A stretch of 60,377 bases of DNA, counting the filler, from Sphacelaria rigidula (Eukaryota): the NCBI GenBank assembly GCA_964200075.2. It is 8 parts of 8 records of this genome, joined end to end, with 100 filler letters (N's around TTAATTAATTAA, not from the genome) between each part and the next. Parts side by side here need not be neighbours in the genome. Positions count along the whole stretch, not along the records: positions 1 to 7,460 come from CAXNAA020014823.1; positions 7,561 to 15,020 come from CAXNAA020014824.1; 6 more parts are not named here. One strand, written 5' to 3'. Of this stretch, positions 1 through 57,359 are shown one piece after another. The position numbers were made by a program, and so were the translations under genes. The notes below the pieces were generated by a model. The model was not told the origin of the DNA. It worked only from the letters and a program-made list of their open reading frames with translations, and did no database searches. Position 1 is the stretch's first letter. Each line of letters starts with the position of its first letter.

Positions 1-1686
1 AACACAATCCCGGGGAGCGGTTGATTCTCATTTCAAAATACGTTCTCATTTTTCTAGCAACCCTGTTTATTGTTTGAATTGTGGCTTTTGGTTGATTGGA
101 GAAAAGAATTGGACACATTGAGAAAACATTGAAATTCGTAATGGAACATGCTTCCCTTTTTCGGGGGCGTTGATTATTTTGTGAGGATATATACATATAT
201 GATGTGTGTATATATATATATATATGGGATCGATATTGTCTCGTCAATATTTCGAAAAACCTTTATTGAAAAAGGTTTTACTCCAAGGGAGAAGTATGAG
301 GTATAGGCTTCGAGCAGGGAGGCTGATCGAATTTGCCCGCACCAATTGCACCGAAGGGTTATCTCCTGGAGTCAGGGGATTATTCCTCGGATAGGGACAG
401 GGTAAAATCGACGGAATGGAGGTGCTGTTGAAGCGGTGATCTATTCCGCAGTCAATTGGGTGACGAGGACTAATGACGTTTGACGGTTTTTGTTTCGGGC
501 ACCATGGAACTTCTTCCGACGAGGCGACCTGGAGTTTTGGTCGAATATCCATGGTTGATATTTCTGAACAAACTAAGAATATCCCTAACCCTAACCCTAA
601 CCCCGACCCAAGGCGTACGAGATCCTCGGACAAGGGGGGTACATATGTTCCCCTACGCATAGTGTGCGTTGGCAGACCTGAAATCGACGCCGCAGGCGCC
701 GATTTCGACGAAAACACGTTCTGGACGAGGTAGATCTACTGCTCACCTGCCCCATACCATACATTTTCTCAAAAATTTCTCAAGTCGAAAATCACGTAGT
801 GATGTTGTCAACCATAGATATACGACCAAGGCTCTAGGTCTACTGCATCGAACACTGAGGAAATAGGATGAGGGCGTGTCTTGGCACCTTGTTTTTCAGT
901 ACAAAGAATGGGGCGGTGGAATCGATCTGAGCGAAATTCCCTCGTTCCGATGCAGTTGGGGGCAAATGGATTTTCAAGCTTTCGATCAAAAGAAGACGGT
1001 GAAACTCGTGAAATGGTACATGGTCACTCGTATACAACATAAGTACCGACAGCCTGTAAGGTCTGCACTGCTTGCAAGCAGTGTCTTGAGTGCGTGTGTG
1101 CGTGTTTGGTACAGGAGAATATAGAAGAGAAGCGGGCAACGTGCAGTGCAGACAGCACAGGACTATCAGTTCTCCCTGCTTACAATAGGACGTGAAGAGG
1201 ACTTGAGCAACGTGCAGCTTTGTACTGCCTGCACTGTCCATGAGCGTGCACGCAACTCGGTGGCCTACCGTACCACGCAGTTCCGTCGCTGATCCCTACC
1301 ATGAGAGAAGATGCGCAAGTTTTCGCCTACAAATCTAAACGAAGCACACCCAAGTACTGCAGTGTATTTATCCCTGACTCAACTCGTGCTCTATGCTGCA
1401 GGGTTGCGGTGGTAGCTGAGAATGAGTTGGATGGAACTTGCATGGTCCTGCGGACAAGTGTTACGCGGCGATGTGGTCTGTAAGATAGGAGTCAAGTGCC
1501 GATTCGTGCCTTTCGACCGCATGCTTTCGATCGAAAACGATTGTTTTTTACCTCGACCTATTCTTTTCCGCGCGGCGCTAATTATAATTTTGAGTTGAAG
1601 CCTTCTGGGAACATAGATGCGGTCGGCCTATCAGATCGGCGAAAAACCATCGACCGCACTTTTTCGATCGAAACAAAGGGTGCTAA

Positions 1687-1887
1687 GGGCCTGTCTTAGC
1701 ATGTAAGCGTTCGATCGAAATCGTGCGGTGGAAAGCAAAAATCCCGATCTGATAGGTCGTAATTTCAACCATCGTCATTAATTATGAAGATGGCTGAAAT
1801 CACGACTTATCAGATCGGGACTTTTGTTTCCCACCGCACAATGTCGATCGAAATCTGATGAGCTCAGATAGACCCGAAGACACGCCC
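1687..1887. mobile_element. PIF/Harbinger (Tourist-like) palindromic MITE
   Basis: Termini GGGCCTGTCTT...AAGACACGCCC, flanked by TAA/TGA. The interior is a fold-back (GATCTGATAGGTCGTAATTTCAACCATC / GATGGCTGAAATCACGACTTATCAGATC). Same family as 51026-51208, with fragments near 870-990 and 52290-52610. Confidence 0.7.
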
Positions 1888-1972
1888 TGAACGTCACTCG
1901 AGTGATTTTTCCCAAATGGGGCATGTGTGGAGTTTTCGTGGATGTTTCTTTGGAGGCGACCGGTGTTTAGTC

Positions 1973-2230
1973 TGTAGCCAAATGATACCAAGCCGTAGGT
2001 TTCAGTAAAACCGCATGCATGATTGGAGCAGGGGCAGGGGACAGAGGATCCTGGATTGATGACCCTTACCTGTGTGGCCCCTTGCTGTCTGGCTCGTGAT
2101 GTGGTCTGTTGAGGATCACTCCGTGATAATGACAAGTGAGAACAGAGGACTTGTCGAGCACGAGGCCAGTGATAGTGGAGGAGTCTCTCGTTAAACGTCC
2201 TCTTGTCCAGATCGCCTGGCAGAGGCTATA
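1973..2230 (+). repeat. 5' LTR (258 bp, lacks the MITE insertion)
   Basis: Aligns end to end with 6171-6631 and 6856-7306 apart from their ~200-bp insert. Followed by (AT)n. Confidence 0.88.
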
Positions 2231-2437
2231 ATATATATATATATATGTATATATATATTCTTTTCGGCACGCTGTTGGAAGAGTTTGGCTGGGGAGAGGG
2301 GCCGCAGCTGGAAGTCAGCTTGGCCTGCAGTCGAAGAGATCAACTTGAAGCCAACTTGAAGCGCACAGCAGTGGAGGACGCACCGTAGGCTGGAGGACGC
2401 ACGAGAGGCTCTCGTGAAGTGGTGAGTTCTAGACGAC

Positions 2438-3213
2438 ATGGCTCAAGCGGCTGCAGCGTCGCTGGTGTTAGGTGGGCCACTAGAGCCGCCAAAGTATGAC
2501 GAAGGGTGGACTGGAGAAGCGTCAATAGTTGTTTTTGCCGCATATCTCGATTATTTAAAGGTTGCATTTAGCCAACGCTCACGGAGTCATAAGGCATGCC
2601 AGGGTGAGAATCGGACAACTTATTCCAACATATATTCACCGGTGCTTTGAAGGCATGTACAAGGCCCTTCGGGCTACAACCCCCGACGAAATGCTAGATG
2701 CTGTAAAGCAGCATGCCGGGTACACCACAACAGGCGGTGAGCATGACACTGCGCGGGCTGCAGCAGACGCGCATGTAGTACTTCCGATTCAGCCAAGTGT
2801 TGGACCATGCGTCAAGAGTAGAACAATGATGATCAAGTCGTCGATGGAAACGTTTTCGCTGAAAATCTGACGGTGCAAGCCATGTATCGTGCAGAGGACA
2901 GGAGCCGGTTGCCAGGCCCGGCCAAGTCGGTTTCAACAGCTCTAGTAGAGGCGGGATTTCGCCTCCGGAATTCAAGACGTATGTTAGAAGTGTACTAACG
3001 TATTTCGACGACGGAAAAAGAATCCGACGGTGGTGTTCAAACAAATGTATGAGGCCGCCGACCAGTGAAAGTTTATTGAAGCACATGGCCGGCCCGATTC
3101 TGCAACAAGTGCAGATGGGATGCGCCGCAAACAGCAAAAGCAACAGAAACAGCGTCGTCCACTCGCGCGTGTTATAGCTCCGGCGACACCGGACATATGA
3201 TCAAGGACTGCCC
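2438..3213 (+). pseudogene. gag: gag remnant of the Gypsy element
   Basis: Broken ORFs downstream of the LTR end in a degenerate CCHC zinc knuckle, CYSSGDTGHMIKDCP (~3169-3213). Confidence 0.72.
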
Positions 3214-3432
3214 CGAGCCTCGCGCTCAAGGCGCTGCTCAAGGAAATGTGTGAGATTCATCAGGATCTCGAGGCGGTCGTCACGATGGACGGGGACGTGC
3301 CAATCAGGGACGCGGGCGCGGCGACCGCGGTAGCAAGCAATCGGCGGCGGATGGTGGTCCCTCCGCTGCTTTTTCTTCCACTACGTCATCAGGTGGTGAC
3401 TCTGGATCTTCTGGTTCGCCCGTAGCGGGGCT

Positions 3433-6092
3433 GTGGAGTCGCAGCCCATTACTTTCGCTGTCATGCCCGGTAGGGACAACGTGGTTCTATTTGAAATGGC
3501 GACGATGAAGGAGCTCGGGATTGATTTGTACCCGCTGACGTTGGAAGAGTTACGCCCGCGTGCTGTACCGGTGCAAACCGGCGTGGAAAACCCCAGCTGT
3601 CTTGCTGCAAGGCGTGTGGTCGTATCAATACGGTCGTTCCATAGCGCTAATGAGGAGGAGGCTCCCGCTGATGAAGCGGGGGAGCGCTTGGTCGATCGGA
3701 GGCCCGACATGTTCATGGACTCAGCGGAGGAGAGAGGTGCCGAAGAAAGTGTGCTTGGGGATAGCGTGGAGGAGGCCGAGCAGAAAGGCCCGAGCGCCGA
3801 TGTCGCGCATCGTCTGCGCGATAATTTGGCTCGTCGCGTCGATACATTTTGTCGTGCGCTGTGTGATGATCCGCCAGCGCGCGTGGAGCCCATGAGGGAA
3901 GCTGTGAAGGCCAAGCCGCGCCGCTACGATCCGGTGAAGACCGTGTAGCATGCCTCATGCATCGCAGCTTCGTTGGCGTTTGATTTAGTTGTTAGCAACA
4001 CCCACGCTGTGTGGGCGAGTCCGGCGATGACTGTGTCGAAGAGGGACACATTCCGTTTGGTCAGCGACTACCAGGCGGAGAACGCGCAAGTGGAAAAGTC
4101 TCCGGAGGTGATACCAAGCCAAGAAGACATGTGGGAGTTGCTGGGAGCCCGGTGCTTCGGCAAGTTGGACCTGCTACAGGGGTATTGGCAGATGCCCCTG
4201 GCGCTGGAGGCTCAGGAGATCTTCACGATCGTCACGCCTGACGATTTCTTTACGCCAGGTGAAGCTTGCTTGGTGACGGTTCCTAGCGTGCCTGCTCGTT
4301 CTGTTGCCGTGTGCAGCCCGTGTGATGCCGATGATTCGCTGCCCTCGTTGGACGTTATTCGCACCGCGCAGCGCAAAACAGTCGGCGAACGTGTTCATTC
4401 GTTTCCTACGACCTTTGGTCAAGCTACTTTGGCTGAAGATGATTTGTTTTGCGTGCGTGTTGGCAGTAGTGATGTTTTGTGGATTCCGTCGGATGATAAG
4501 GCTCTACAAACTCGCTTGATGGTCTGCGCTCAAACGCGGTCGGTTGGTCACCGTGTGGCGCCAACTCTGTTTCGTTTGAAAGAATACTGTGTGTGGCCTA
4601 ACACAGACTCCCACGTTCGCAAGTTCGGTTGCCAGTCTTTGCATTGCGTAGACACACGTGCTGGGGCGATTGTACCTCGCCCGTATGGCCATACTGTGCA
4701 TGGTACTGCGCCAGGTGCAGTTTTTCACTTTTATTTTCTGTACGTCGGAAGTAGCGGACCTGAAGGTGCTAATGGTTGGCCTATTGAGAATGCGTTTCGC
4801 TACGTTTGGTTATGATGGATGGTCTGTCCAATTCCGTTTGCTTGAAGCCGACCGAGGCTTGCGCCGCTGAGGTTGCGGCTAAGCGCTTGCTCCATTAGTG
4901 CAAGACTTTGGGGGTGCCGCGTGTGTGGGTAAGTGATACCGCCACGCGCTTCAAGAATCGAGTGATCGCGCAGCTGAGCGACGCGCTCAAGGTGCAACAC
5001 CAATTTTCTGTTGCGTATACCCCTTGGTCAAATGGTGCTTGTGAACGCATGGTGAAATAGGTTACTCATGCGTTGCGATCTATTTTGTCGGAACAAAGAC
5101 GGCCGGTGTCTGAATGGATCGATGTTTTGCCAGCCGCTCCGTGGGCGTTGAATACTTCTTCTCGTGAACGCTACTGTAACACTCCGTATTGTGTGATGTT
5201 TGGGCGTACGCCGCGTACAGCGTTTTCCGCGCTAGCTTCTGTCACCGGCGGAGAGTGGAACGTCGATGCCATGGATGCTGTTTCGTCGCGTGACAAGGCT
5301 CGAGGCGTGGTTGACAAGCAAGTGCGGTTTTGTAACAAAGTGCAAGCTGCGGTCGCGGTGTCTCGAGAAACCAAACGCAAGCTTGCTCAGGATCAGACTG
5401 TGTTGCCCGAGTTTGCAGTTGGCGATTTTGTATTGTATGCCCGTGTTTGAAGGCAAGATGTGACGCCAAAGTTGATGTCCACGTGGACAGATCCGTGGCG
5501 AGTGGTCGGAGCCGATCACGCTCACGTGTAATCGGTGAAGAACAGTTTTTGTGGCGCCGTACACTCGGTCCATGTCGCTCGTTTACGTTTCTATGCTGAC
5601 TCGCAGTTGCACATCACTGCAAAACTAAATGATGTATTTCAACATTTGTGTACTCAAGGTGAATGTCGGATGTGTAATACGTGAGAGGACCGCGTGCTCA
5701 GAGGACCGCATCGGCATTTGAACATCCCCATAGTTAGGGTTAGGGTTTGGGTTAGTGGTAGGGTTAGGGTTAGGGGCGTGCAGGGACTGGCCCGATTGGT
5801 TTCGAATAACGTCGATCCTGAGGTGTTTTGAACTACGGCGCGATCGTCTTAAGCACGCGGTTCTCTCACGCATTACAGGATGAACGCTTCGGTGCACGTC
5901 GCTGAGGATGACAATATTTATTTCATTGTTTTGGTCGGTTGGGGAGGGTTAGGTGCTGAAGAACGTACGTGGGAGTCTCTTCGCAAGATTCATTCTTCTG
6001 TGCCTGAATTGTTTTTGAAGGAACTGCGTAAAATGCGGTTGACTCGGGCGCTGACCAGTAAATTAGCGTCGGTGTATGGTATTTCTTTGTGA
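3433..6092 (+). pseudogene. pol: pol remnant: partial RT, integrase and C-terminal chromodomain
   Basis: RT motif FGKLDLLQGYWQMPL..EIFTIVTP, then a deletion near 4258 (no YxDD, no RNase H). Integrase Zn-finger region GHRVAPTLFRLKEYCVWP. Core WVSDTATRFKN and YTPWSNGACERM. GPY/F-like KLMSTWTDPWRVV. Chromodomain-like YFIVLVGWGGLGAEERTWESL. Confidence 0.9.
5673..5877 (+). mobile_element. Telomere-repeat-bearing TGTAA...TTACA MITE, copy 1 (inside the integrase-chromodomain linker)
   Basis: ~27-bp TIRs and a 5-bp TSD, GGATG/GGATG. Removing it restores the frame ...QGECRM|NASVHV... Internal GGGTTA repeats. Confidence 0.9.
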
Positions 6093-6170
6093 CCTGGCGC
6101 ATGCGATTTCGCCTTGGTTTCTGTTGGTTGTCAAGCTCGTTCGTTTGTCTTGAACTCGCTTTGGGGGTGC

Positions 6171-6631
6171 TGTAGCTAAATGATACCAAGCCGTAGGTTT
6201 TAGTGTACTCGCATGCATGACTAGAGCAGTGGCAGGAGAGAGGGGATCCTGGATTGATGGCCCTTATCTGTGTTGTCCCCTTCCTGTCTAGCTCGTGATG
6301 TGGTCTATTGAGGATCACTCCGTTGTAATGCGTGACAGGACCGCGTGCTTTGAGGGCCGCATCTGAATTTGAACTGGTTGGGGTTAGGGTTAGTGTTGGG
6401 GTTAGGGTCAGGGGCGTGGTTCCCGCAGGGACTGGCCCGATTGGTTTCGAAAAACGTCGATCCTGGGGTGTTTCGGACTACGCCGCGGTCCTCTAAGCAC
6501 GCGGTCCTTTCACGCGTTACACTGTGATAATAACAAGTGAGAAGAAAGGACTTATCGAGCACAAGGCCAGTGCTATTGGAGGAGTCCCTCGTTGGTAGTC
6601 CACTTGTCCAGAACGTCTGGCAGAGGCTATA
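6171..6631 (+). repeat. 3' LTR copy 2 (with MITE)
   Basis: Follows the PPT-like tract and matches LTR 1973-2230 plus an insert at 6324-6521. Confidence 0.9.
6324..6521 (+). mobile_element. Telomere-repeat-bearing MITE, copy 2
   Basis: TIR TGTAATGCGTGACAGGACCGCGTGCTT / AAGCACGCGGTCCTTTCACGCGTTACA. TSD CCGT/CTGT. The empty site is visible in the 5' LTR (CACTCCGTGATAA). Confidence 0.92.
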
Positions 6632-6855
6632 GTGCTAAGAACGTACGTGGGAGTCTCTTCGCGAGATTCATTCTTTTGTGCCTGAATTTGGTTTGAAGGA
6701 ACTGCTTAAAATGCGGTCGACTTGGGCGCTGACCAGTAAATTAGCGTCGGAGTATGGTATTTCTTAGTGACCTGGCGCATGCGATTTCGCCTTGGTTTTT
6801 GTTGGTTGTTGGTTGTCACGCTCGTTCGTTTGTCTTGAACTCGCTTTGGGGGTGC

Positions 6856-7306
6856 TGTAGCTAAATGATACCAAGCCGTAGGTTTCAGTATACTCGCATG
6901 CATGATTGGAGCAGTGGCAGCTTATCTGTGTGGCCGCTTGCTGTATGGCACGTGATGTGGTCTGTTGAGGATCACTCTGTTGTAATGCGTGACAGGACCG
7001 CGTGCTTTGAGGGCCGCATCTGAATTTGAACTGGTTGGGGTTAGGGTTAGGGTTAGGGTTAGTTTTAGTGTTGGGGTTAGGGTCAGGGGCGCGGTACCTG
7101 CAGGGACTGGCCCAATTGGTGTAAAACGATGTCGATCCTGGGGTGTTTCGGACTACGCCGCGGTCCCCTAAGCACGCGGTCCTCTCACGCATTACACTGT
7201 GATAATAACAAGTGAGAAGAAAGGACTTATCGAGCACAAGGCCAGTGCTATTGGAGGAGTCCCTCGTTGGTAGTCCACTTGTCCAGATCGTCTGACAGAG
7301 GCTATA
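6856..7306 (+). repeat. LTR copy 3 (tandem reiteration, with MITE)
   Basis: Preceded by a duplicated chromodomain tail plus PPT (6632-6855). Matches 6171-6631 except for a ~27-bp deletion and small indels. Confidence 0.9.
6981..7196 (+). mobile_element. Telomere-repeat-bearing MITE, copy 3
   Basis: Same TIRs, TSD CTGT/CTGT, and a longer (GGGTTA)n tract than copy 2. Confidence 0.92.
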
Positions 7307-7460
7307 GTGCTGAAGAACGTGCGTGGGAGTCTCTTCGCGAGATTCATTTTTTTGTGCCTGAATTTGTTTTCAAGGAACTGCTTAAAATGCGGTCTGTAGC
7401 CAAAATACACCAAGGCGTAGTAGATGTAGCATGTAGGATCCTGGATGATGACCAGGGGAC

Positions 7461-7560
7461 NNNNNNNNNNNNNNNNNNNNNNNNNNNNNNNNNNNNNNNN
7501 NNNNTTAATTAATTAANNNNNNNNNNNNNNNNNNNNNNNNNNNNNNNNNNNNNNNNNNNN
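7461..7560. other. Artificial scaffold linker (N44-TTAATTAATTAA-N44); identical linkers at 15021-15120, 22581-22680, 30141-30240, 37701-37800, 45260-45359 and 52819-52918
   Basis: The same 100-bp spacer, with stops in all six frames, recurs every ~7,560 bp. The segments between are 7460 bp (x5) and 7459 bp (x3), as expected for size-sorted scaffolds. Confidence 0.98.
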
Positions 7561-9074
7561 CTTATAATACTAAAACCAAGTAATTTCCTGACGAATCATT
7601 ATTTGTCATAACCGTGAAAAAATGTGAGAAGGTCTGAAATTCGGCAGTCTCCTAGGCTCATGATCATCTAGATCTACCGTTGTGTTGCTGTTGGATATCT
7701 CGTTACAGATGGTGGTAATCTCGTCGTTTGCTTGCCTTCGCCGGCAAAATAGAAAGACAAGGTCATACTACCTACCCGTGTATGGCGTTCATAACTGCGG
7801 TAAACATCTTCTCAGAACCTCTCCGTGACACGGGGGGGGCAGTCGGACAGGCTAGGGCGTGATCGACCGGCTCCCTCGGGATGCTGCAGCAGTCCACATG
7901 AGCAAAAATACTGACTGTAGAAAGCCCCGTGTATAGATCGCAGCATGCTTGCTTTCTGTGAGTTGTATGATGAGCAGATACACCCAATTAAACCACCAGC
8001 TATACACTTTTCACACGGTGCGGTAGCGTACATTTGTAGCGGCACTGTAGACAAGTAGGTAGCTACTGGATTGTTTCTGCTCTTCACTTCGGAAGTGCGT
8101 GTCTGCAAACGACAACCCCCGTGCTTGACCACAACAGCTCCAACACCGCTGCTGGGGCGCACACCGTCCGTCTAAGGAGATACATACCGCCAACCCGCGG
8201 TGCCTTTTACTCTACGACATAGCCTAGGGTGTCACTAGCAAGGTTCCTGATGGTTTTCTCATGCTGGCGAGCGCCGCGGCATGCGCCAAGGGCAGCTCTC
8301 CGGAGTATTGCGCTGCGGTTCGAAATATTCGGCGTTCGCCAAACGTGAAGGCTTGGCGAAAAATCTAGCCGCTTCATTTTCGGAGAACGCCAAGCGCCAG
8401 GTGCAAAAACGCCTAAAATCTTGGCGATCTCCGAAAAAATTGTGTCGATAACAGCAGTCCTTGGTAGGAATTGAGTCTCAGATTTTCGAAAAAATTGAAG
8501 GAGAAATTTGGCGTAAGAAATTAAGCCCAAAAGATGGGACATAAGAAATGGAGCGGCAGGAAATCGATCAATATCATCGTGCAATGAAAGTTCGTATGTA
8601 TGAAGAGTAACTGGCGTAAGACATGAAGCAAATGCTGGGCTAGGAGCAAGACATGAGCAAAATAAGAAACAGATGCAATTTTCTTGGAAATATATATTAT
8701 GATGAGGAATGGCGGCATGATGAGTGACGCTCATATCGGCTGCCAAAGCAAGGTTTTGAGCCTCGCTCGGAATACCTGTTTCTAATGAGCGGGCCGGCAC
8801 TGTGCGCACATATACATGACACCCTTGACGCGATAATAATAAAACACATGCATTTCCACCCCTCGTACAGCATGGCAGTCGTATACATGCAGTATATATT
8901 TGCATGTGCTACTAAATATGTCTCAAACCCGAGATTCCGGGTAGTACGTCTACTACAGTAATTTGCAATCAAATATACCAGGAACCCTGAGTTTGAGATA
9001 TCTCCTATAACAGAACGACAAGCACCAAAAGAATGAACCCCAGTTATGGGATAAGAGTTTACAACTCGAACAAA

Positions 9075-9756
9075 CAGCGGATTCTCGAAAATGGGGTTGA
9101 AAAAATAATGAGGTTCAACTCAAAAGCCGTGCTTTCCCTGATCTAAATTCATGGCAAATGACTTTCATACGGACGACCTCATCCCTCCGGACCCCGAGTG
9201 ATGCTACGGTAGGGGTACACAAATATTTCCTGAGGTTAGAATTGCTAGGAGCCTTTTATCTCATCCAAAACACGACTCATGAAAGTATGCGAGAGTACGC
9301 CAGGATTACTATTATTACAATGTGCTGGGAATATCACGAATTAATCTGCAAACGGGGATGCCCTGACCCATATTCTTGTGCTTCTAGAATCGTTAGGAGC
9401 CCTTGAACCGGACAATTTTTTGCTCAAGAGGTGCACCCCTACCGTAGCATTGCTCCCCCCCCAAAACTTTTTCGGGGGATGTCTAGCGTTCCGTCCCCCC
9501 AAAGGATATATGTGCAAAATCACACTTTTGCTTCGATTTCGGGGTAAAAAAGGGACGTTTTTAGCCCAACAGTCGTGCTTTTGCACATACCTTTTGGCGG
9601 AACGGAAGGCTAGAAACCCCCCAAAATAGTTTAAGGGAGGTCGGGAAGGATGGGGTCGTCCACATGAAAGTCATTTGTCATGAATTTAGGTCAGGGAAAG
9701 CACGGCTTTTGAATTCAACCTCATCTTTCTTCAACCCCATTTTCGAGAATTCACTG
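9075..9756. mobile_element. Tc1/mariner-type MITE with ~110-bp TIRs
   Basis: Termini CAGCGGATTCTCGAAAATGGGGTTGAA ... TTCAACCCCATTTTCGAGAATTCACTG, followed by TA (AA on the left). Confidence 0.72.
9196..9455. mobile_element. GAG...CTC MITE (Sola-like), nested in the mariner-type MITE
   Basis: TIR GAGTGATGCTACGGTAGGGGTACAC / GTGCACCCCTACCGTAGCATTGCTC with a 4-bp TSD, CCCC. Confidence 0.75.
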
Positions 9757-10607
9757 TAAACACAAGATTCTCCCTAGAGGTTCATATCAAATCGAGGTTC
9801 CCCAAATCTTCTACTTAAAGTTACAGTGAAATATATCAGGAATCTCGAGTTGCGGAAGATACCTCTTCTAACCTAGCCCCGATACACTGCAACTGAGATG
9901 ATCACGCTGCTTAGCCTACTTTTCGGTCCAATAATGTCCGTGATCGCTAGGAAATCCCTTCATCCAGCGACTTTCTTCAACTCTGTGCGCTTACAGCGCG
10001 GAGCGATGAGCGTGTTAGTTTGCCTTGATGTAAACAACGAAATTACGGTACTTTCTCTCGGCGGTGTGGGCGTGCAGAGTCGGTGCATGCTGGTAAAGAA
10101 GGTTCCACGCATTATCAGGCCGACAATATTACCGTCGCCGTGCACCCACAGCGCTGAGAGCAAATGCCATCTTGCTGTGACCGCCGGGGTATCATACTAT
10201 GATGCATGAGTCATTCGGCCCTCCACCCGTTTCTTCAGTGAAAGTGATGCCAGGTCAAAAGATGACCCACCCTGGCGGCCAAGGGTTGATCTAGGCTAAA
10301 TAAGCTTTTGCCCAGCGCTGTGGGCGTAGAGTCTCTGTGTGTGCAAGCCACGATAGATTTCACGCGATCGACGGGGTATTAGGTCGACCAACACGTCAGT
10401 GGGCACAGTTAGTTTTAGGTTAGGGAAAGCGCTGCGTGTGGGGTTAGAGCCAACTCATGTCTGGAGCTTCTTGTGCACGTACGTGTACCCTGTGACCGCC
10501 ATGGTATAAGTCATCACGATAATTTTTGATGCAGGAAAAGATGCCGATTCAACAAATGACCTACCCTGTTTCCAGAAAGCGAACAGTTTACCGATTGAAC
10601 CAGTGAG

Positions 10608-10660
10608 CGCTCACTGGTTCAATGGGTGAACTTAAGATATGCAGTTCGAGTCCCGGGATG
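10608..10660 (+). repeat. tRNA-derived SINE-like head
   Basis: A-box-like TGGTTCAATGG and B-box-like GTTCGAGTCC. No cloverleaf. Confidence 0.35.
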
Positions 10661-11166
10661 ATCGCCTGTGGAAGGAATGAGTCTGACACGTGAACAGTGC
10701 GGCTTGTGAGGGGCAAGGGACCCCGGAGATCACTGATGAGGCATGCCGGGACGGACCACACAGCATATCTTTTGTTCAGGAAGCGAACAGTTGACCCATT
10801 GAACAAACGGTTCGCTTCCTGAACACCCTGCCTGGTGGTCCAAAGGGTTCAAATGTTTTAACTGTTTTCTGTTTATACTACAAAAATCCCGTGTGTAGAG
10901 TGTGGTACAGGAGAGTTTCACCCCTTCACCATGGCAGGCCGAATGCAGGGAAACTTGCCATTAAGAGTAAACGACAAACGCTAAGGTACGTACGTACAGT
11001 AACCAGGTTTCGATACCGGCGTTTACGGAAATATCGTGATGTGGTACGCCACTTGGACCAACTCCTGACCGGTAAAATACCCGACTCGCTCGCCGCTGGT
11101 ACTCCAATATTGAAGTGCGGATGACTCCATCGACGAAACGAGTCGATGTACTGAGATTCACTCCGT

Positions 11167-11370
11167 TGTAATGCGTGGGAAGACCGCGTGCTTGGAGGAC
11201 TGCATCGTAGTTCTAAACACTCCAGGATCGACGTTTTTCAAAGCCAACTGGGTCAGTCCCCACAGGGACCACGCCCCTAAACCTAACCCCATCACTAACC
11301 CTTACCCTAACCATTGGGGTGTCTATACTCCGATGCGATCCCCTAAACACGGGTCCCCCCACGCAATACA
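11167..11370 (-). mobile_element. Telomere-repeat-bearing MITE, copy 4 (opposite orientation, different scaffold)
   Basis: TGTAATGCGTGGGAAGACCGCGTGCTT ... CACGCAATACA with a perfect TSD, CCGT/CCGT. Degenerate (CCCTAA)n inside. Confidence 0.88.
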
Positions 11371-12642
11371 CCGTCACCATCTCGGCCGTATCACCCACCT
11401 TGTCGTGTTTCCTCCGAGGTGGTATGAAGTTTTGACTTTACTGGTTGACCACTCTTTTCAGGCCTTCCTCCAGTTACTGTACTAGACAATTGATTACCTG
11501 GGTCACGGTCAAATAAAACGCTCGGCTTTTCACCCTCTTTCGTGTTTATTCTGTTTCAAGGAGCCAAATTTACGTAGTACATACCAGTCAGGCGACGCAA
11601 GGAGGCAAACGGCGCATTCTGTCGAGATAATGTTTCGTGATGATCGAGCTACATTGAAATTTTGTCTCATGGATAAAAAAATCGCATGGAAAAAAAAATC
11701 GCTGTTACGTTGTTGCTCGTTTCATGTACCCAGCGTTATGTGCTCGCCGTTTCTTCTTGCGTCGGGTTTCGACCTGCGGCGCCGGCACACGAGCAAGGGG
11801 ATATTACGGGGAAACGTTGCTATTTTTGTAGGAACTGAAAACATGGAACAGGGCAACTGCAGTGGTTGTTGGTCGAATTCAACGATGACTCAGATTAGCC
11901 CTAAGGTCCACGCGATCACCAGCCAGAAAGAAGAAAACAAGAACAAAATGCAAGCAGAACGTTTATAGAGGCGTAAAACGCCCGCGTGATTATCCACGGA
12001 GAAGCCTGCTGTCTCGCACTCTGTCACAGAGAAGCCGTTGACAACGCAGCAAGTAAAGTGCACGGTGTTTACGCTCCGTGGTGCCCTCGGAGGGCTACTG
12101 TATAAATAGGAGGGCTACTGTATAAATAGAAGCAGACACCCGATACCGCCCTCGCCCCCCCAAACGCGATCCCTAGCGTTGTCGAAAGTAGACGAATGCT
12201 CACAAGCGTGGTCATGGTTCTAATATTCATCACATTTGAACGAATTACGTTGCACTATATACATTTCCCTTGAACGAACAACCCCAAACTCCGAGCCCCA
12301 CACATCTCTAGACATCAAGTAGGCCATTGATGACCGCCTGGAGATCATCCGGCGCCCCGTGTGCTGACGTTGATGTACGCGGGCCAAATGCGCTTTGCCC
12401 CCTGCCCCGAATGTGTCATCGGGACGATAGCCTCTACGCAAAACGTTCGTGAGCGTTTTATTACATTGCAAGACGACACTGAGAAACGTTCTCCAGATCT
12501 GTTTTGGGACTGTTCCGGGGAACGCCTCTTTGGATCTCACGCTGGACGTTCCTACGAACGAACGGCGAGCGTTTGGAATAGTGTTCCCCATGAGCTGCAC
12601 GGTTTTTGTCGTAAGTTGCTCACTATAAATGAGGACTGGCGA

Positions 12643-12667
12643 CAGCAAGAACAGCAAGAACAGCAAG

Positions 12668-12705
<38 letters not shown>
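12643..12705 (+). repeat. (CAGCAAGAA)3(CAA)n microsatellite, possibly the 3' tail of a LINE remnant
   Basis: Read directly. Preceded by RTASVWNSVP, which resembles the WNxLP motif near LINE ORF2 C-termini (inference). Confidence 0.6.
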
Positions 12706-12707
<2 letters not shown>

Positions 12708-13445
12708 TCAGCACTGAGCATTGCTGCCACGGCCACAGAAGGCGCGACCGCCACTACATGTTCTTCTAGTTTTGTTGTTTTCTTCTTTCGTTACTACACT
12801 GGTCTCACATCTGACGACCCGGCGTTCCCATGAATAGAAGTATGAATAGTTTGATAGTCTTGCGTGTGTCTGCCGTTACCTCATCAACACCACATATATG
12901 TTGAAGTGGACGGTCCTGTACTCCTTTGTAGAGCAGCCTCCTCACTACCGCGGGCACGTGATTCTGCTTGTGTGCTACTCTCTCTCAAACTGAAGTACAA
13001 GATAATTGTGACTCAAGGTATCTAACCCTCAACCTCACCAATCGAAGGGTATGGGTTTCGCATCCATCTGATATACTATTAATACCATGACTCGCGCGCG
13101 GTCTTCATCGCACGCTTTCAAACCGCCGGATGCTTTTCTCGTCATTGTATTGTGCCCTTTCCTTATCCTCCCCGACCCCCGTCCTTGCTTCTTCGAGACG
13201 AATCCGTGGTCTACATCTCTCTCCCCCGAAAGTAGTAGTTACCTTGAACTTGTATTGTCGAGTATTGGACGATCAGCACCACTGCGGCCCGCCCGCTTTC
13301 ATCGATTCGTTCGAAAATATTTCTCGTCGTGTTTCAAGTGGACATGAATGTCAACAATGCTTTAGCTACCATCGTACAATGCGCGTTCACTGTATCTCCG
13401 TGATTCATCGCGTCTAAATATTACGAAACCCCAAACAACACGCAG

Positions 13446-13610
13446 AGCGAGCTGTGATGAACTCAGGGCTGGCATTGCCGGCATGGCAGGGGACACGACC
13501 ATCACCTTCTCCAGCGGCGCTGTGGATTGCCCTATCCTGGCCGACAACGAACTGGAAGAGTTCGTCATCGAAGGAGGCGTGCTCACGCTCACCGGCGTGA
13601 GCACCACCAA
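13446..13610 (+). CDS. Isolated internal exon, probable secreted or surface protein (N-terminal-like region of adhesin/polymorphic-membrane-protein-like algal proteins)
   Basis: Acceptor CAACACGCAG|, donor |GTAAGA, 165 bp, symmetric phase 2. Encodes ASCDELRAGIAGMAGDTTITFSSGAVDCPILADNELEEFVIEGGVLTLTGVSTT with high GC3. The family call is tentative. Confidence 0.65.
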
Positions 13611-14499
13611 GTAAGAATGGTTGTATCCTGAACATTAGCCCTCTTATGCAGTACATTACTTTGACCCTGTCGTGTGAAACGTCGGCGCGTTCTTAGTACG
13701 TACCACCCAGCTCTTTTGGACGAGTGTTGTATTTCAGAACTGCATCATTTTGTAGTCAATTCTATATTCTCCAAAGAGTTTTGCACACACCGTTCGTTGG
13801 TAGACTGAAACGTTACCGCTTTCCGGCGACCACTTTGTTGTCCATCCGATTTTCATCGTGTGTACGTAGTATCTTGCCTGGCCGGGAAGCTTGCTAGGTG
13901 GTTCAGTCCTCACAAGAAACTTTCAGATGTTGTACCCCATTTCCTCCCTTTATTTCCTCGTCCATCTTGTAGTGCACCGTGTCCACCTCTATCTTTGAGT
14001 TTTCTGTACTGCTCGTCATGCAGCTATTGCTGAAGAAAACGAAATCTATTCCATCGTGTGGGTGATACTTTCTAGATGTGCAGGCTTACGCTGCTTCGAA
14101 AAGCTTGGATAAAATATATCTGAACCCGCTATCACAGGCTTTACCTTTGAGTAGGTGCCACTTTCAGATAAATTCACATAATGCAGCATAGAGCAGGACA
14201 CTCCACGAACTTAGAGTCAACAAACTGAGGACGAACGCAGTCCTCATGGTGGTCAGTGTTACGTGGGAGCATAGTATTCTCAAAACCGTCTTTTGCCTAG
14301 ATTTTCCCCCGTTTTCCAACGTACACCACCGCTATTTTTTGCGCACCATAGCGATGTATACATGGGTTTATATGTTATATACGAAATGATGATAACCCCT
14401 TGACAGACACTGCTGGTAGTATTGTCCATTCATGGGGGTGCATTCCAGATACCCCCCCCGCGCGCCCGCCCTGAGAGAAGGGATCTGAAAGAGGGGATC

Positions 14500-15020
14500 T
14501 GGATGAAAAAATATCGGTATGACCCATGGACGCGGCGATAAAATTGATAGTGCGATTTCGGGTGGGGGACCTGGACCTGCCAGAAAGAAAGAGATATATC
14601 AGTAGTCATGTAGAGGAGGAAGTAGATGCATAGAACTACCCCTGTGGCAAAGCAGTAGAGAGCAGAACTCACATAGTTGCAGAATGTGAACTATACAAGA
14701 AGGAACGGGACGTGCTAGAGGGGGAAATGCGGGACGTGAACGAAGGTGGCATGAAACCCTTTGATGTATTAGACAGTGGCAAGAATACCATGGCTAGACG
14801 AGGAGATAGATAGTGGCGACAGACGGCGAAACAGGATGGGAATAAGATATGTAGAAGGTTTTTGTGTAATGTATTGAAGAGGCGTCATGAGCTATTGAAG
14901 AAACGTAATGAGCACCGGAATATTGGAGGTGTCTCTATTAGGAGTGTAAACGGTGCTCCGTCTCGAAAGGGATGCGTGGTCAATAGTCAAACGACTAAGG
15001 CAAGCAACAAATGAGCACGC
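14500..15020 (+). mobile_element. 3' end of a non-LTR retrotransposon (LINE ORF2 C-terminus and terminus)
   Basis: Degenerate CCHC-like PCGKAVESRTHIVAEC. The terminus GTGGTCAATAGTCAAACGACTAAGGCAAGCAACAAATGAGCACGC recurs at 52707-52750, where poly(C) follows. Confidence 0.7.
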
Positions 15021-15256: not shown

Positions 15257-16668
15257 TCAAGATCCCAAACGCGCGACGTCTAGGGGCTGCGTGATGTGTG
15301 ATGAGTGCGACGGAAGCTGAAACAGCTCAATATTGAGCGACATCGCCAACTTGATCACTTCGAGGGTGAGGTGGGACGCGTGCTCATGGAGCACCTGCAC
15401 GTGCGGCTTGCCGTCAGCCTTCTCGGTTGGTGCCAACACTGTGCTTGTGGAACGCCTTTATGAAGCTAATGACCACAGGTCCCTGCATGAATGACGATTC
15501 GGTTGAAGCGTAGAACGCACCCGGTGGACCCCCGCCATTAACCCCCGCCGGCTGCACTCGCTGCCCTTCAGAAATCATCAGCGCTGGAGTCACCTCGCCC
15601 GTCGAAGTGATGGTGGTGACCACCGTAACATTTTCGCGGGAGTTGGAATGCTTTGTGCCGACGACCTTTTGTCCTCTCTCGGCGATGACCTTCCACGCCT
15701 TGGTCCCTTGCGGAGTACGGCGAAGATCTCCACGAGTGACGTGTGTAGGGGGGGGAGGGGGCGGCGGCGGGGGTATTACATAATACTGCTGTACGGTATC
15801 GACTAGTGCGTCGAGTATCGGGTGGTACGCAGAGTACTGCCACCACTTCTAATGCCGATACTTGCAACATCTCTACAGCCAGTATGGGCAGTGCCTCTAT
15901 AAAGAGTGAGTACAATCAACAGAACACGCCGATGCAGGAAGATGACACGCAAAGCAGACTACCGCCAAGTGCGGGGTAGGCTAAGAGTGCGGCGAGACTA
16001 ATACCGTTTAAACGCAGCATATTTCAGATCAGGCAATCACCACTCCACAACAACGGCCTCTGGCTCTAGCTGTAGACACATGCGTTGTATCACATGAACG
16101 GAACGGCTCATAACAGACTGTAAACCACCTGTCTCGTCAGTGTTCCACATGTGGTCGATCGCTGGCTTCTCCCTGTCCACGTACAGTAGTTCTGCCAGGC
16201 CGCATAAAACTCCCACATGCGATCTTCTTCATCAGCCACCACTCTGTCGGCCTTTTAGATGCAGCTGATGCGCTCCGCTAGCCGCAGGTACCTCTGAAGG
16301 AACAAGTCGAGCTATTCTCGGCCTGGGCCTACTGCCGGATCCCATGGCACTGGTCGGTTGTCGTTGCAGAGTGCCATAACCGGCTGTTTCAGGTCATCTC
16401 TTTTCAGGCCCAGTTGACCAGCTGCGGCGAATTTCAGTGTATTTTCGATGGAATGTTCTTCCGCCGTCAACAGTACGGTGCCCGGGCCAACCCTGCCAGC
16501 TGTGCCTACGCTGCCACTGACATGCTTCTGAAGCGAACCGACAGAGATGTCAAAGGTGTACGCAGCAGCACGGAAGGTGATGCGACCTCTGCGTACCGCT
16601 TCTACGGCCTCTGCTGCACGCTCTGGGTCCACCGTTTCAACCAAAAACCTGATATGGGAGAAAGACAC
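15257..16668 (-). pseudogene. pogo/Fot1-type (DDE_1) transposase pseudogene, interrupted
   Basis: N-terminal psq-type HTH (AVEAVRRGRITFRAAAYTFDISVGSL...GPGTVL) and C-terminal HASHLTLEVIKLA...LFQLPSHSSHITQPLDV. Frameshifts, with unrelated DNA at ~15730-16150. Confidence 0.85.
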
Positions 16669-16799
16669 ACACGCTTATGCTCAGAGCTGTGGGATAATGT
16701 TTCACGATGCTATAGGCATGAGCAGTAGCTCAAGCGAAGCGTCGTACTCCTGTGCACACGCAGCGAAAAACAGAACGGAAAACGAAGGATATTCAGCGG

Positions 16800-23800: not shown

Positions 23801-25085
23801 TTTCGTCACCGGGAAAACGTCACTTCGAGTTCGGCGCACGAATCTGTCACATTACTATACTTGACCTTGGACTGATGCACGGTTTCGGTTGACTGCGACA
23901 GTTGTTGAAAAACAACCATATATTGCCCAAGAAAACGTCATTTGTAAATCGTCACTTGTCCCATCAACGGTGCCGAAAGGGTTCACATGCGATAATCAAT
24001 CAACTAGTCCCTCAAATCAATCAGCTGGAACCTCGATTGCGCTCTCTCAAAAGTCGAGAGACCATCCGTGCCTATTTTACTATAACTTTTGTCCGCACAT
24101 TAGTCCGATTTCGCGAACCCGTGGTCACAGACGTATCCTCGCCTTTCCAATACCGTTTCCTGCTATTCCTTACAAGACACATTACCAAAAATAAAAAGAA
24201 GACGAGGAATGCTCCGAAAACCGGTGCCTACAAAACAGAATTTGTGGATGAAGAAAGCCGGTCCATATTTCACTAGTTTCATCCATTTGTGTCATCAATC
24301 GTATTCTCAATGGTGCCCGCCGCAAGACGACCTACCAATATCGCCATCTCGACCATATCCCCGTAAGAATGACTGCAACACGCCATCTATCTGAAGATCA
24401 AATCCTGATCAATATCCACATTTTTCCCTGCAGAACTCCAACTACTTGTTAATATATATATATAAACTTTTGACACAAAACAAACAGAAGGGCAATAAAA
24501 AAAATAAAAAAGGATAATCTACGGGTGCACGACCTGGACCAACCGTTACGCCTTCGCCTGACTCGCCAGCACGCACATGTTGCACTGGTTACGCCACGGA
24601 TTCAACTACATCAGCGCTCACTCCAGAAAATCGTTGCAGCGAAGAGAACAATCTTCCTGCCTCGACAACCTTTTCGCCGAATTGCGTCCACGTACGTACG
24701 GATGCAGCGCCGTATTCTGCCCGGCACTCATCATGAAGCATTCGGTGTAAGGGATCACCGTCTGGGTGTAAAATAAATACTGACCACGCGTCCAATCCGA
24801 CATACGTGGGTCCCGTAACGCCAGATTATGTGCCGGATCCAACCGACTACGCGTCGTGTTCAACGATACAAACTTCCAGAATATTTCGACTCCCAACGGG
24901 TCTATGTTAAACAAAATACGAAACTATTGGACGCCACGGTACAGTGCTGCAGGGGGGGGGGGGGGGGGGGCCACTTCGCCGAAACACCACCCGGGGGGGT
25001 GGCGGAACCAATGCCCACACACACAAACCACAAAAAAAACNNNNNNNNNNAAAGGAAACAAAACAGAAAAAAAGTGAGCGGGCCG

Positions 25086-56421: not shown

Positions 56422-56620
56422 AATGATTTTGCGGCCGAGGAGTGAAGGGCGCGGTACTATCAACTAAGCGTACATTAGTATCGAACTACAAACACTTGAA
56501 TTTTTCCTGACCCTTCGTCTCTTTGCCCATTCCCCCCCTGCGTGCTCCCACTTGCCTTGCAACTACTCTCGTGGCCACTTGCTGCGTTACTACTTCCTGG
56601 AATGAAACGAACGAACGCAG

Positions 56621-57359
56621 CGTATCTGTTAGTATTACGAAACACGCGAAACACAAGTTTCCGGTCCCTTCCAAGTGTCCATGGGCACACACCGACACGA
56701 TCGCTACGGGGGAGAAACCACCGTGCAGCTTCAAAGATGGCACGATACCGAAAAATTTCTCCGAGTTGCGGCGGTGTATGGAGGAATCGCCATGCCGGCA
56801 GGAGGACAATCGGCGACAGATGGTAATTTTGCGAGATCCGAGGCCAATGGCGGTTAGCACATACTTTTACTTGAAAGCGCATGGCCGAGAGTTTAAGGTC
56901 GGGTTCGGCGAGGGAAAAAATTTGGAGCAAGAATTGACTGTTGACGAGTACGTCGTGCGCATGATTGACATTTTGTGCCAGTGGGTATCTATTCGATATC
57001 TCCTGCATGCCACGGGCCACACGTGGGAGAGATCGACTTTTTTCTGGTATGATGACGGCATGTCCGACCCGTTCAATTGGCACCGAAGTTTCCTCGGCTC
57101 CGTGGGCATGCAGATGCCCTTATCGGTGGTCTCTAACGCCACCAATGCAGCCCTACGGAACGACTTTGGCTTCAAGACCAAAGGCGGATTGGATGAGCAT
57201 CCCGGTGCAAAGGGCGTTGCCAAGAATGCCACAAGCCGCTCGTATAAGGATGAAGTTCGACCGGACACGCTACGGGTTATGGATGATGCTATGCGGACGT
57301 GGCTGCCTCCAGTGCTTCAGACGAAATTCGGCATGACTCCTGCAGATGAAAGAAAGTAA
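56621..57359 (+). CDS. Sulfotransferase exon 4 (3'-PB motif to stop)
   Basis: Acceptor AACGCAG|, phase 2. VILRDPRPMAVSTYFY (3'-phosphate-binding motif), FWYDDGMSDP (cf. YEDLxxDP) and stop TAA. The spliced CDS is 1257 nt, 418 aa. Confidence 0.92.

Follow-up and report, generated by a model that had tools for sequence, protein, structure and literature searches.

A high-copy miniature inverted-repeat transposon with a telomere-like tract and Ginger1-like ends in Sphacelaria rigidula sequence

Inspection of a 60,377-base stretch of DNA from an assembly filed under Sphacelaria rigidula (GCA_964200075.2; the whole stretch is referred to as the window) revealed four copies of a ~200-bp MITE (miniature inverted-repeat transposable element) that is bounded by long terminal inverted repeats (TIRs) and carries a degenerate telomere-like tract. 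The element belongs to an old, high-copy family that has inserted with a 4- or 5-bp target-site duplication (TSD), in either orientation and at numerous unrelated locations, among them a long terminal repeat (LTR) and the coding region of another transposon. Judging from its termini and TSDs, mobilization of a Ginger1-like kind appears to be about an even bet (probability of roughly 0.5). The window comprises eight pieces, each ~7,460 nt in length, joined by identical linkers (44 N, TTAATTAATTAA and another 44 N, at 7461–7560 and then every ~7560 nt) that contain stops in all frames, and features are not to be read across these joins.

Copies, termini and insertion sites

Copies 1 to 3 lie on the plus strand within the first piece (1–7460) and copy 4 on the minus strand within the second (7561–15020), the internal part of copy 4 being reversed in orientation relative to that of the other three. 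Copy 1 (5673–5877, 205 bp) interrupts a degenerate pol frame of Gypsy type in its 3′ end and is flanked by GGATG on both sides (5668–5672 and 5878–5882). Copy 2 (6324–6521, 198 bp) resides in the 3′ LTR of this Gypsy element between CCGT (6320–6323) and CTGT (6522–6525), copy 3 (6981–7196, 216 bp) between two CTGT tetramers (6977–6980 and 7197–7200), and copy 4 (11167–11370, 204 bp) between two CCGT tetramers (11163–11166 and 11371–11374). The original prediction, made from the sequence, had listed four ~200-bp copies starting at 5673, 6324, 6981 and 11167; all of these starts were confirmed and the ends corrected, and the TSDs it had assigned to the individual copies (GGATG/GGATG, CCGT/CTGT, CTGT/CTGT and CCGT/CCGT) were all recovered. 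As copies 2 and 3 share the same flanks in successive ~675-bp units of a tandem array, they represent one insertion that was duplicated together with its surroundings. The four copies thus correspond to three independent insertions on two scaffolds, again as had been proposed. Over aligned positions, independent copies are 79–88% identical to each other, and copies 2 and 3 93%.

The TIRs are well paired over ~37 nt in copies 2 and 3, with weak pairing extending up to ~50 nt, and are therefore longer than the ~27 bp originally put forward. The predicted TGTAA start is present at seven of the eight termini, with TGTAT at one end of copy 4, and the far ends read TTACA. When a 29-nt TIR probe was searched with up to three mismatches, it matched seven of the eight termini and no other site in the 60,377 bases, and none of 100 shuffled sequences yielded a match. 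Folded as single-stranded DNA, copy 2 forms a 37-bp terminal stem (–51.2 kcal/mol vs. –28.4 kcal/mol for shuffles; z = –7.1). Between the termini, the ~200-bp element contains a conserved internal block and no reading frame. A scan of the window for further TGT…ACA TIR pairs with 4–6-bp TSDs retrieved none beyond the four copies.

An empty counterpart of the site shared by copies 2 and 3 is preserved on the plus strand in the 5′ LTR of the Gypsy element (2117–2130), in line with the original prediction. Here, CACTCCGT, which includes a single CCGT (2121–2124), is directly followed by GATAAT and the element is absent; at the filled copy 2 site, the order is CCGT, element, CTGT and GATAAT. Because the 5′ LTR (2117–2128) as well as public contigs have a single CCGT, the duplication at copy 2 is 4 bp in length, with one later C-to-T change at a CpG. 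Indeed, the duplicated CCGT now reads CTGT in three of four instances (6522–6525, 6977–6980 and 7197–7200), CCGT being retained at 6320–6323. Within the copies, CpG counts of 11–18 compare with TpG plus CpA counts of 22–27, and there are hints of CpG decay in this repeat.

Logan contigs from four public sequencing runs (X3, X4, X5 and X1; 9,752–13,145 contigs per run) were mapped on positions 5450–6640 at ≥80% likeness. Three of the runs derive from one organism (two samples, X4 and X5 representing the same one) and one is labeled ‘algae metagenome’. The telomere-like tract was masked in this mapping, such that the contig data cover the element outside the tract, and all contig counts are lower bounds, those of loose ends resting on 24 of 1,679 rows and those of joints on 15 of 170. 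Contigs that skip copy 2, passing from 6321 to 6524, numbered at least 4, 5, 5 and 6 in X3, X4, X5 and X1, respectively. Copy 1 was likewise skipped, from 5667 to 5878 with five ambiguous letters, by at least 4, 4, 1 and 2 contigs. In addition, the pol frame upstream of copy 1 (5550–5672) resembles residues 1539–1578 of a related Gypsy polyprotein (P0001) and the frame downstream (5883–6092) resembles residues 1579–1647. As skipping contigs and pol collinearity agree, copy 1 constitutes a 210-bp insertion with a 5-bp TSD. A 4-bp duplication was ruled out at this site, since GATG directly precedes and GGAT directly follows the element. For copy 4, the duplication was read from the CCGT on both flanks.

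The same contigs speak to the abundance of the family and the exactness of its ends. Across the four runs, summed depth reached 417,167, 1,187,907, 646,278 and 608,582 in a TIR bin (5690–5729), far higher than in the adjoining Gypsy bins (6,562, 45,113, 15,845 and 22,549 at 5890–5929), although such summed depths are not copy numbers. At least 164, 175, 171 and 170 contigs in X3, X4, X5 and X1 ended their match exactly before position 5673, and at least 92, 108, 104 and 118 exactly behind 6521, with sequences beyond these ends being unrelated between contigs (agreement 0.31–0.34). Because contigs break at precisely these positions into disagreeing flanks, the termini are real boundaries at hundreds of loci. 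Together with the empty sites, this bears out the earlier view of a non-autonomous TIR transposon, that is, a MITE, which disperses telomere-like repeats. Certain contigs led from the 3′ end through other letters to a 5′ start (5877 to 5672/5673; at least 3, 18, 18 and 13 in X3, X4, X5 and X1) and are read as closely spaced or nested copies.

Telomere-like tract, target sites and candidate mobilization

Each copy harbors an internal tract of six to nine degenerate TTAGGG units, in agreement with the variable-length GGGTTA tract noted originally. On the plus strand, the tracts of copies 1 (5734–5775), 2 (6378–6413) and 3 (7035–7088) comprise seven, six and nine hexamers with at most two mismatches to TTAGGG, of which four, two and four are perfect, respectively; in copy 4 (11275–11310), the C-rich strand is on the plus strand, and two of the six hexamers are perfect. 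Copies 2 and 3 go back to one insertion and differ by three hexamers, from which it follows that tract length changes after insertion. With loops limited to 12 nt, a minimum of four G-runs is retained in every copy, and with loops limited to 7 nt in copies 1 and 3 only; by regular expression, the tract of copy 1 scores as a G-quadruplex-type motif, and G-quadruplex formation by the tract is possible as far as sequence patterns go.

Most likely, the tract would be passive cargo inherited from a founder copy, its length being altered by whole hexamers through replication slippage, and each insertion would have turned its target into a short interstitial telomere-like site. With just two to four perfect units left per copy, the tract appears to be decaying neutrally. 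Telomeres of Ectocarpus consist of (TTAGGG)n, as stated in a published report (bioRxiv 10.1101/2024.05.11.593484); if the host belongs to the brown algae, the tract would equal its telomere motif. Inverted repeats also delimit a second unit, at 526–840, which contains three perfect CCCTAA units (583–600) between arms of 33 nt that are 85% complementary and 249 nt apart. It shows no BLAST similarity to the MITE and no clear TSD was seen, and telomere-like cargo may be shared by more than one family in this genome.

The insertion sites of copies 2 and 4 share an upstream context, CACTCCGT, which the original prediction had pointed out; this likeness was confirmed and covers 16 of 20 bases (6304–6323 vs. 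11147–11166). Moreover, an exact 12-mer is collinear between the LTR (2093–2104) and the flank of copy 4 (11033–11044), and CACTCCGT occurs four times in the window as opposed to 1.72 times expected, with the MITE present at two of the three independent loci. All of this favors an explanation we hold possible but less likely than not, namely that CCGT and its CACTCCGT context are no sign of a general 4-bp preference, the element instead targeting a longer motif found in this LTR family or copy 4 lying in a diverged, LTR-derived sequence homologous to the copy 2 site. Against this, the copy 4 flanks lack overall LTR similarity: of 500 shuffles each, 330 attained the observed global score upstream and 374 did so downstream, and the best local score was attained by 14 of 300 shuffles. 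Nor do the flanks at the level of sequencing runs have a long motif in common (agreement ~0.32), and copy 4 is inverted relative to the shared flank motif, which also disfavors simple inheritance of one insertion at both sites. Given either longer-motif homing or an LTR-derived copy 4 site, the two CCGT duplications do not represent two independent votes for a 4-bp preference.

Across the runs, the eleven consensus 4-mers adjacent to the termini were ACCC, GCAC (twice), ACAC, GCGG (four times), GTGG, CCAC and CCCA, with C at position 2 in ten and a purine at position 3 in nine of them. GCGG was seen on both sides of the element, as a preferred duplication would be. The consensus is a weak hint at a GC-rich 4-bp target with a partly decayed CpG core, which would resemble Ginger1 in kind, as agreement was low and the runs are not independent. 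The CCGT preference is weaker than originally inferred: CCGT is duplicated at two of three insertions, but these sites may represent one homologous, LTR-derived target, and the flanks in the runs are GCGG/CCAC-like.

For Ginger1 transposons, the founding description (PMC2836005) gives a transposase resembling Gypsy integrases, TIRs of ~40–270 bp, TGTNR 5′ ends and 4-bp TSDs, the latter being CCGG in 75% and CCGT/ACGG in 24% of cases. It also mentions Branchiostoma copies that are non-autonomous and have the ends of an autonomous Ginger1 element. The present MITE has TGTNR…ACA termini and a 4-bp TSD at two of three independent insertions, both CCGT (ACGG in element orientation for copy 4); by calculation, the probability that two random 4-bp targets both belong to the CCGG/CCGT/ACGG set is about 1 in 7,000. 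To this extent, namely the TGTNR ends, TIRs near the published lower bound, the 4-bp TSD and CCGT, the Ginger-type affiliation suggested at the outset is partly supported. A precedent for MITEs derived from Ginger elements is provided by Ginger2_NA of Bombyx mori and Rhodnius prolixus, as described in a further study (PMC3845634).

Several observations weigh against a Ginger1 affiliation. At ~37 nt, the TIRs fall just short of the published 40–270 bp, one of three insertions has a 5-bp duplication without CG (GGATG), unlike Ginger1 as described, and the two CCGT sites with their 16 of 20 common upstream bases may count as a single target. In the runs, consensus 4-mers are GCGG/GCAC/CCAC-like and dominated neither by CCGG nor by CCGT; at least 84 of 259 contigs (X4) had G immediately before the 5′ end, and at least 65 of 157 (X3) and 68 of 186 (X1) had C immediately after the 3′ end, far below the ~87% expected from Hydra Ginger1 TSD frequencies. 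The part of the Ginger1 description used here also names hosts among animals only (Hydra, Branchiostoma and others; PMC2836005).

A partner element was likewise missing from the sequences searched, the defining trait of Ginger1 being a longer element with the same TIRs whose Gypsy-integrase-like transposase has YPYY, H2C2, DDE and GPY/F motifs and no reverse transcriptase (RT). No autonomous element or integrase-like open reading frame (ORF) with these TIRs was detected in the window, either by the TIR scan or by Pfam searches of eight ORFs and then of 150 of the 178 window ORFs ≥85 aa. In fact, none of these 150 ORFs, degenerate Gypsy included, matched rve or RVT. A TIR pattern that fits seven of the eight termini had no match in metagenome, genome and viral contig collections, and a pattern for the internal block had none in metagenome contigs. 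With P0001 as bait, a genome contig collection returned 34 pattern matches, none of which was confirmed, and a protein-cluster search for integrases lacking RT, using the integrase part of P0001, retrieved generic rve/H2C2 clusters only and no algal Ginger1 lead. In the literature, searches of main texts yielded no description of an algal Ginger family or a telomere-repeat MITE. An automated kelp annotation tabulates 875 ‘ClassII/Ginger’ fragments and gives no description of them in the part of that source considered (PMC12595068), and a curated algal repeat library might already contain this family.

The main alternative, which we consider rather unlikely, is a MITE belonging to some other superfamily, described or not, with 4–5-bp TSDs, in which the Ginger1 likeness would be convergent or reflect one repeated target. 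It would accommodate the mixed TSD lengths of 4 and 5 bp, the GCGG/CCAC-like flank consensus with G at –1 and C at +1 at just ~32–41% (from lower-bound contig counts), the shared upstream bases and collinear 12-mer of the two CCGT sites, and the lack of a partner in the window and contig-collection scans. However, in the excerpted descriptions of other superfamilies none combines TGTNR with a GC-rich, CG-core 4-bp TSD: GingerRoot/IS3EU elements have 6-bp TSDs and mostly TA..TA ends, Ginger2 prefers AT-rich sites and IS481EU is restricted to parabasalids. More widely, hAT elements create TSDs of 8 bp, Mutator of 9–11 bp and PIF of 3 bp, piggyBac and Kolobok duplicate TTAA, CACTA elements combine 3-bp TSDs with CACTA ends, and Transib elements 5-bp TSDs with CAC ends. 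To our knowledge, none of these superfamilies fits the element, which tells against the alternative as well.

TGT…ACA ends and 4–5-bp TSDs are also typical of LTR retrotransposons, and the contigs leading from the 3′ end of one copy across other letters to the 5′ start of another would favor such a reading, too. Even so, it is highly improbable that the copies are solo LTRs of a tiny retrotransposon resembling terminal-repeat retrotransposons in miniature (TRIMs), with unusually long TIRs and moved by a retrotransposon integrase. The end inversions of LTRs are usually far shorter than a near-perfect 37-nt TIR. The flanks at the two ends are unrelated (agreement 0.31–0.34 in at least 92–175 contigs per run), so that no common internal region exists beyond the ends. 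Further, what lies between copies 2 and 3 is duplicated Gypsy sequence, copy 4 has the opposite orientation with respect to the same flank motif, and no copies in the window pair as direct repeats around an internal region, a pattern named beforehand as speaking against a MITE.

On the likeliest reading, the Ginger1-like one, a DDE transposase of the Ginger1 kind, related to Gypsy integrases and supplied in trans, would bind both TIRs and excise the element by what is presumably cut-and-paste chemistry. The TGT…ACA ends would then be joined to a target whose strands are cut 4 nt (occasionally 5 nt) apart, and repair of this stagger would generate the 4–5-bp duplication. Preferred targets may be rich in GC and contain a CpG core (CCGT here), and this preference might apply family-wide.

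A more far-reaching version is improbable in our judgment. It would have a Ginger1-type lineage exist outside animals, in a photosynthetic, stramenopile-like alga, where its MITE derivative would have scattered interstitial telomere-repeat sites capable of forming G-quadruplexes by the hundreds to thousands and would home to approximately TGAG..TCACTCCGT rather than just a 4-bp target. If so, these sites could bind telomere-repeat-binding proteins or seed chromosome healing. Confirmation of a Ginger1-type partner would extend the host range of integrase-derived cut-and-paste transposons beyond animals and supply a clear-cut example of telomere-like repeats being spread through a genome by a MITE. 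As it stands, the result is a solid annotation of a transposon family and not a new kind of system; the family itself is new and fairly ordinary. It would be of use in studies of how integrase-like enzymes choose their targets and of interstitial telomeric sequences and G-quadruplexes, and in the repeat annotation of algal genomes, where such sites can pass for telomere fusions or errors of assembly.

Host retrotransposon and other window features

The Gypsy element that received two of the insertions is delimited on the plus strand by a 5′ LTR (~1973–2230, starting with TGTAGCC) and a 3′ LTR (6171–6631) that is split by copy 2, its halves being 84–87% identical to the 5′ LTR. Its internal region encodes degenerate RT and integrase; the related polyprotein P0001 comprises zf-CCHC, RVT_1, RNase H, H2C2 and rve domains. 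The RT fragment has 13 relatives, of which the best (73% identity) is filed under a Marinobacter metagenome-assembled genome, presumably owing to a stray eukaryotic contig, and Ectocarpus sp. (45% identity) is the sole informatively named one. Together with the run labeled ‘algae metagenome’, this relative provides thin evidence that the host is a eukaryote and probably an alga. A chromodomain in the C-terminal pol tail following copy 1 was considered and rejected, as no Pfam Chromo match was obtained.

The 3′ LTR forms part of a tandem array (5944–7393) of ~2.5 units with a period of ~675 nt and 82–96% identity, each unit consisting of the last ~220 nt of Gypsy pol/3′ untranslated region and the MITE-bearing LTR. 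The third unit has an internal deletion, with pol joined directly to the LTR start at ~7394. Either a genuine LTR-internal tandem array or an artifact of assembly may account for this. A foldback (1687–1875) lies shortly upstream of the 5′ LTR; its two arms of 92 nt show 80% complementarity, with only 5 nt between them. Five copies of a 24-nt motif that ends in TTCGATCGAAA (1513–1853) occur around this foldback, which is probably another small inverted-repeat element.

Elsewhere in the window, neither Rfam matches nor tRNAs were found. The 150 ORFs searched against Pfam yielded only one clear match, HTH_psq (E-value 1.1e-07), in a minus-strand ORF at 16315–16674, and a sub-threshold plant cysteine-rich domain; the former ORF probably represents what is left of a pogo/Tc1-type transposase. 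The longest ORF of the window (56511–57359) has two database matches. Additional 10-N gaps, adjoined by homopolymer-rich sequence, are present at 25041, 26824 and 54505.

Comparison with known elements

Like solo LTRs and TRIMs, the element has TG…CA ends, a 4–5-bp TSD and a length of ~200 bp, and it differs from them in its 37-nt TIR, the lack of a common internal region and its insertion in both orientations at one motif. With IS481EU it has in common TGT…ACA ends and the mixture of 4- and 5-bp TSDs within one family; IS481EU is on record from parabasalids only, often with TSDs of 15 or 25 bp. GingerRoot/IS3EU and IS481EU both have integrase-related transposases. Membership in GingerRoot/IS3EU was rejected, since it requires a 6-bp TSD and mostly TA..TA ends, as opposed to 4 or 5 bp and TGT…ACA here.

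Ginger2_NA and Ginger2/TDD elements offer a closer likeness, including short non-autonomous forms, TIRs starting with TGT, 4-bp TSDs (5-bp in TDD) and an integrase-like transposase. However, their targets are AT-rich (TATA or RTATAY), unlike the CCGT, CCGT and GGATG observed here, and membership in this group was likewise rejected. As for the telomere-like cargo, an Ectocarpus subtelomeric satellite resembles the MITE in having TTAGGG motifs inside a non-telomeric repeat of a brown alga; it is a ~98-bp tandem repeat confined to subtelomeres, whereas the present element is dispersed and has TIRs and TSDs (bioRxiv 10.1101/2024.05.11.593484).

Ginger1 shares with the element TGTNR…ACA termini, long TIRs and, at two of three insertions, a 4-bp GC-rich TSD with a CG core, of the CCGT/ACGG class. 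It is set apart by the shorter TIR of ~37 nt found here, the single 5-bp TSD without CG and run flanks other than CCGG/CCGT, as well as by a host that is seemingly an alga and not an animal, an internal telomere-like tract and an element known without its transposase partner.

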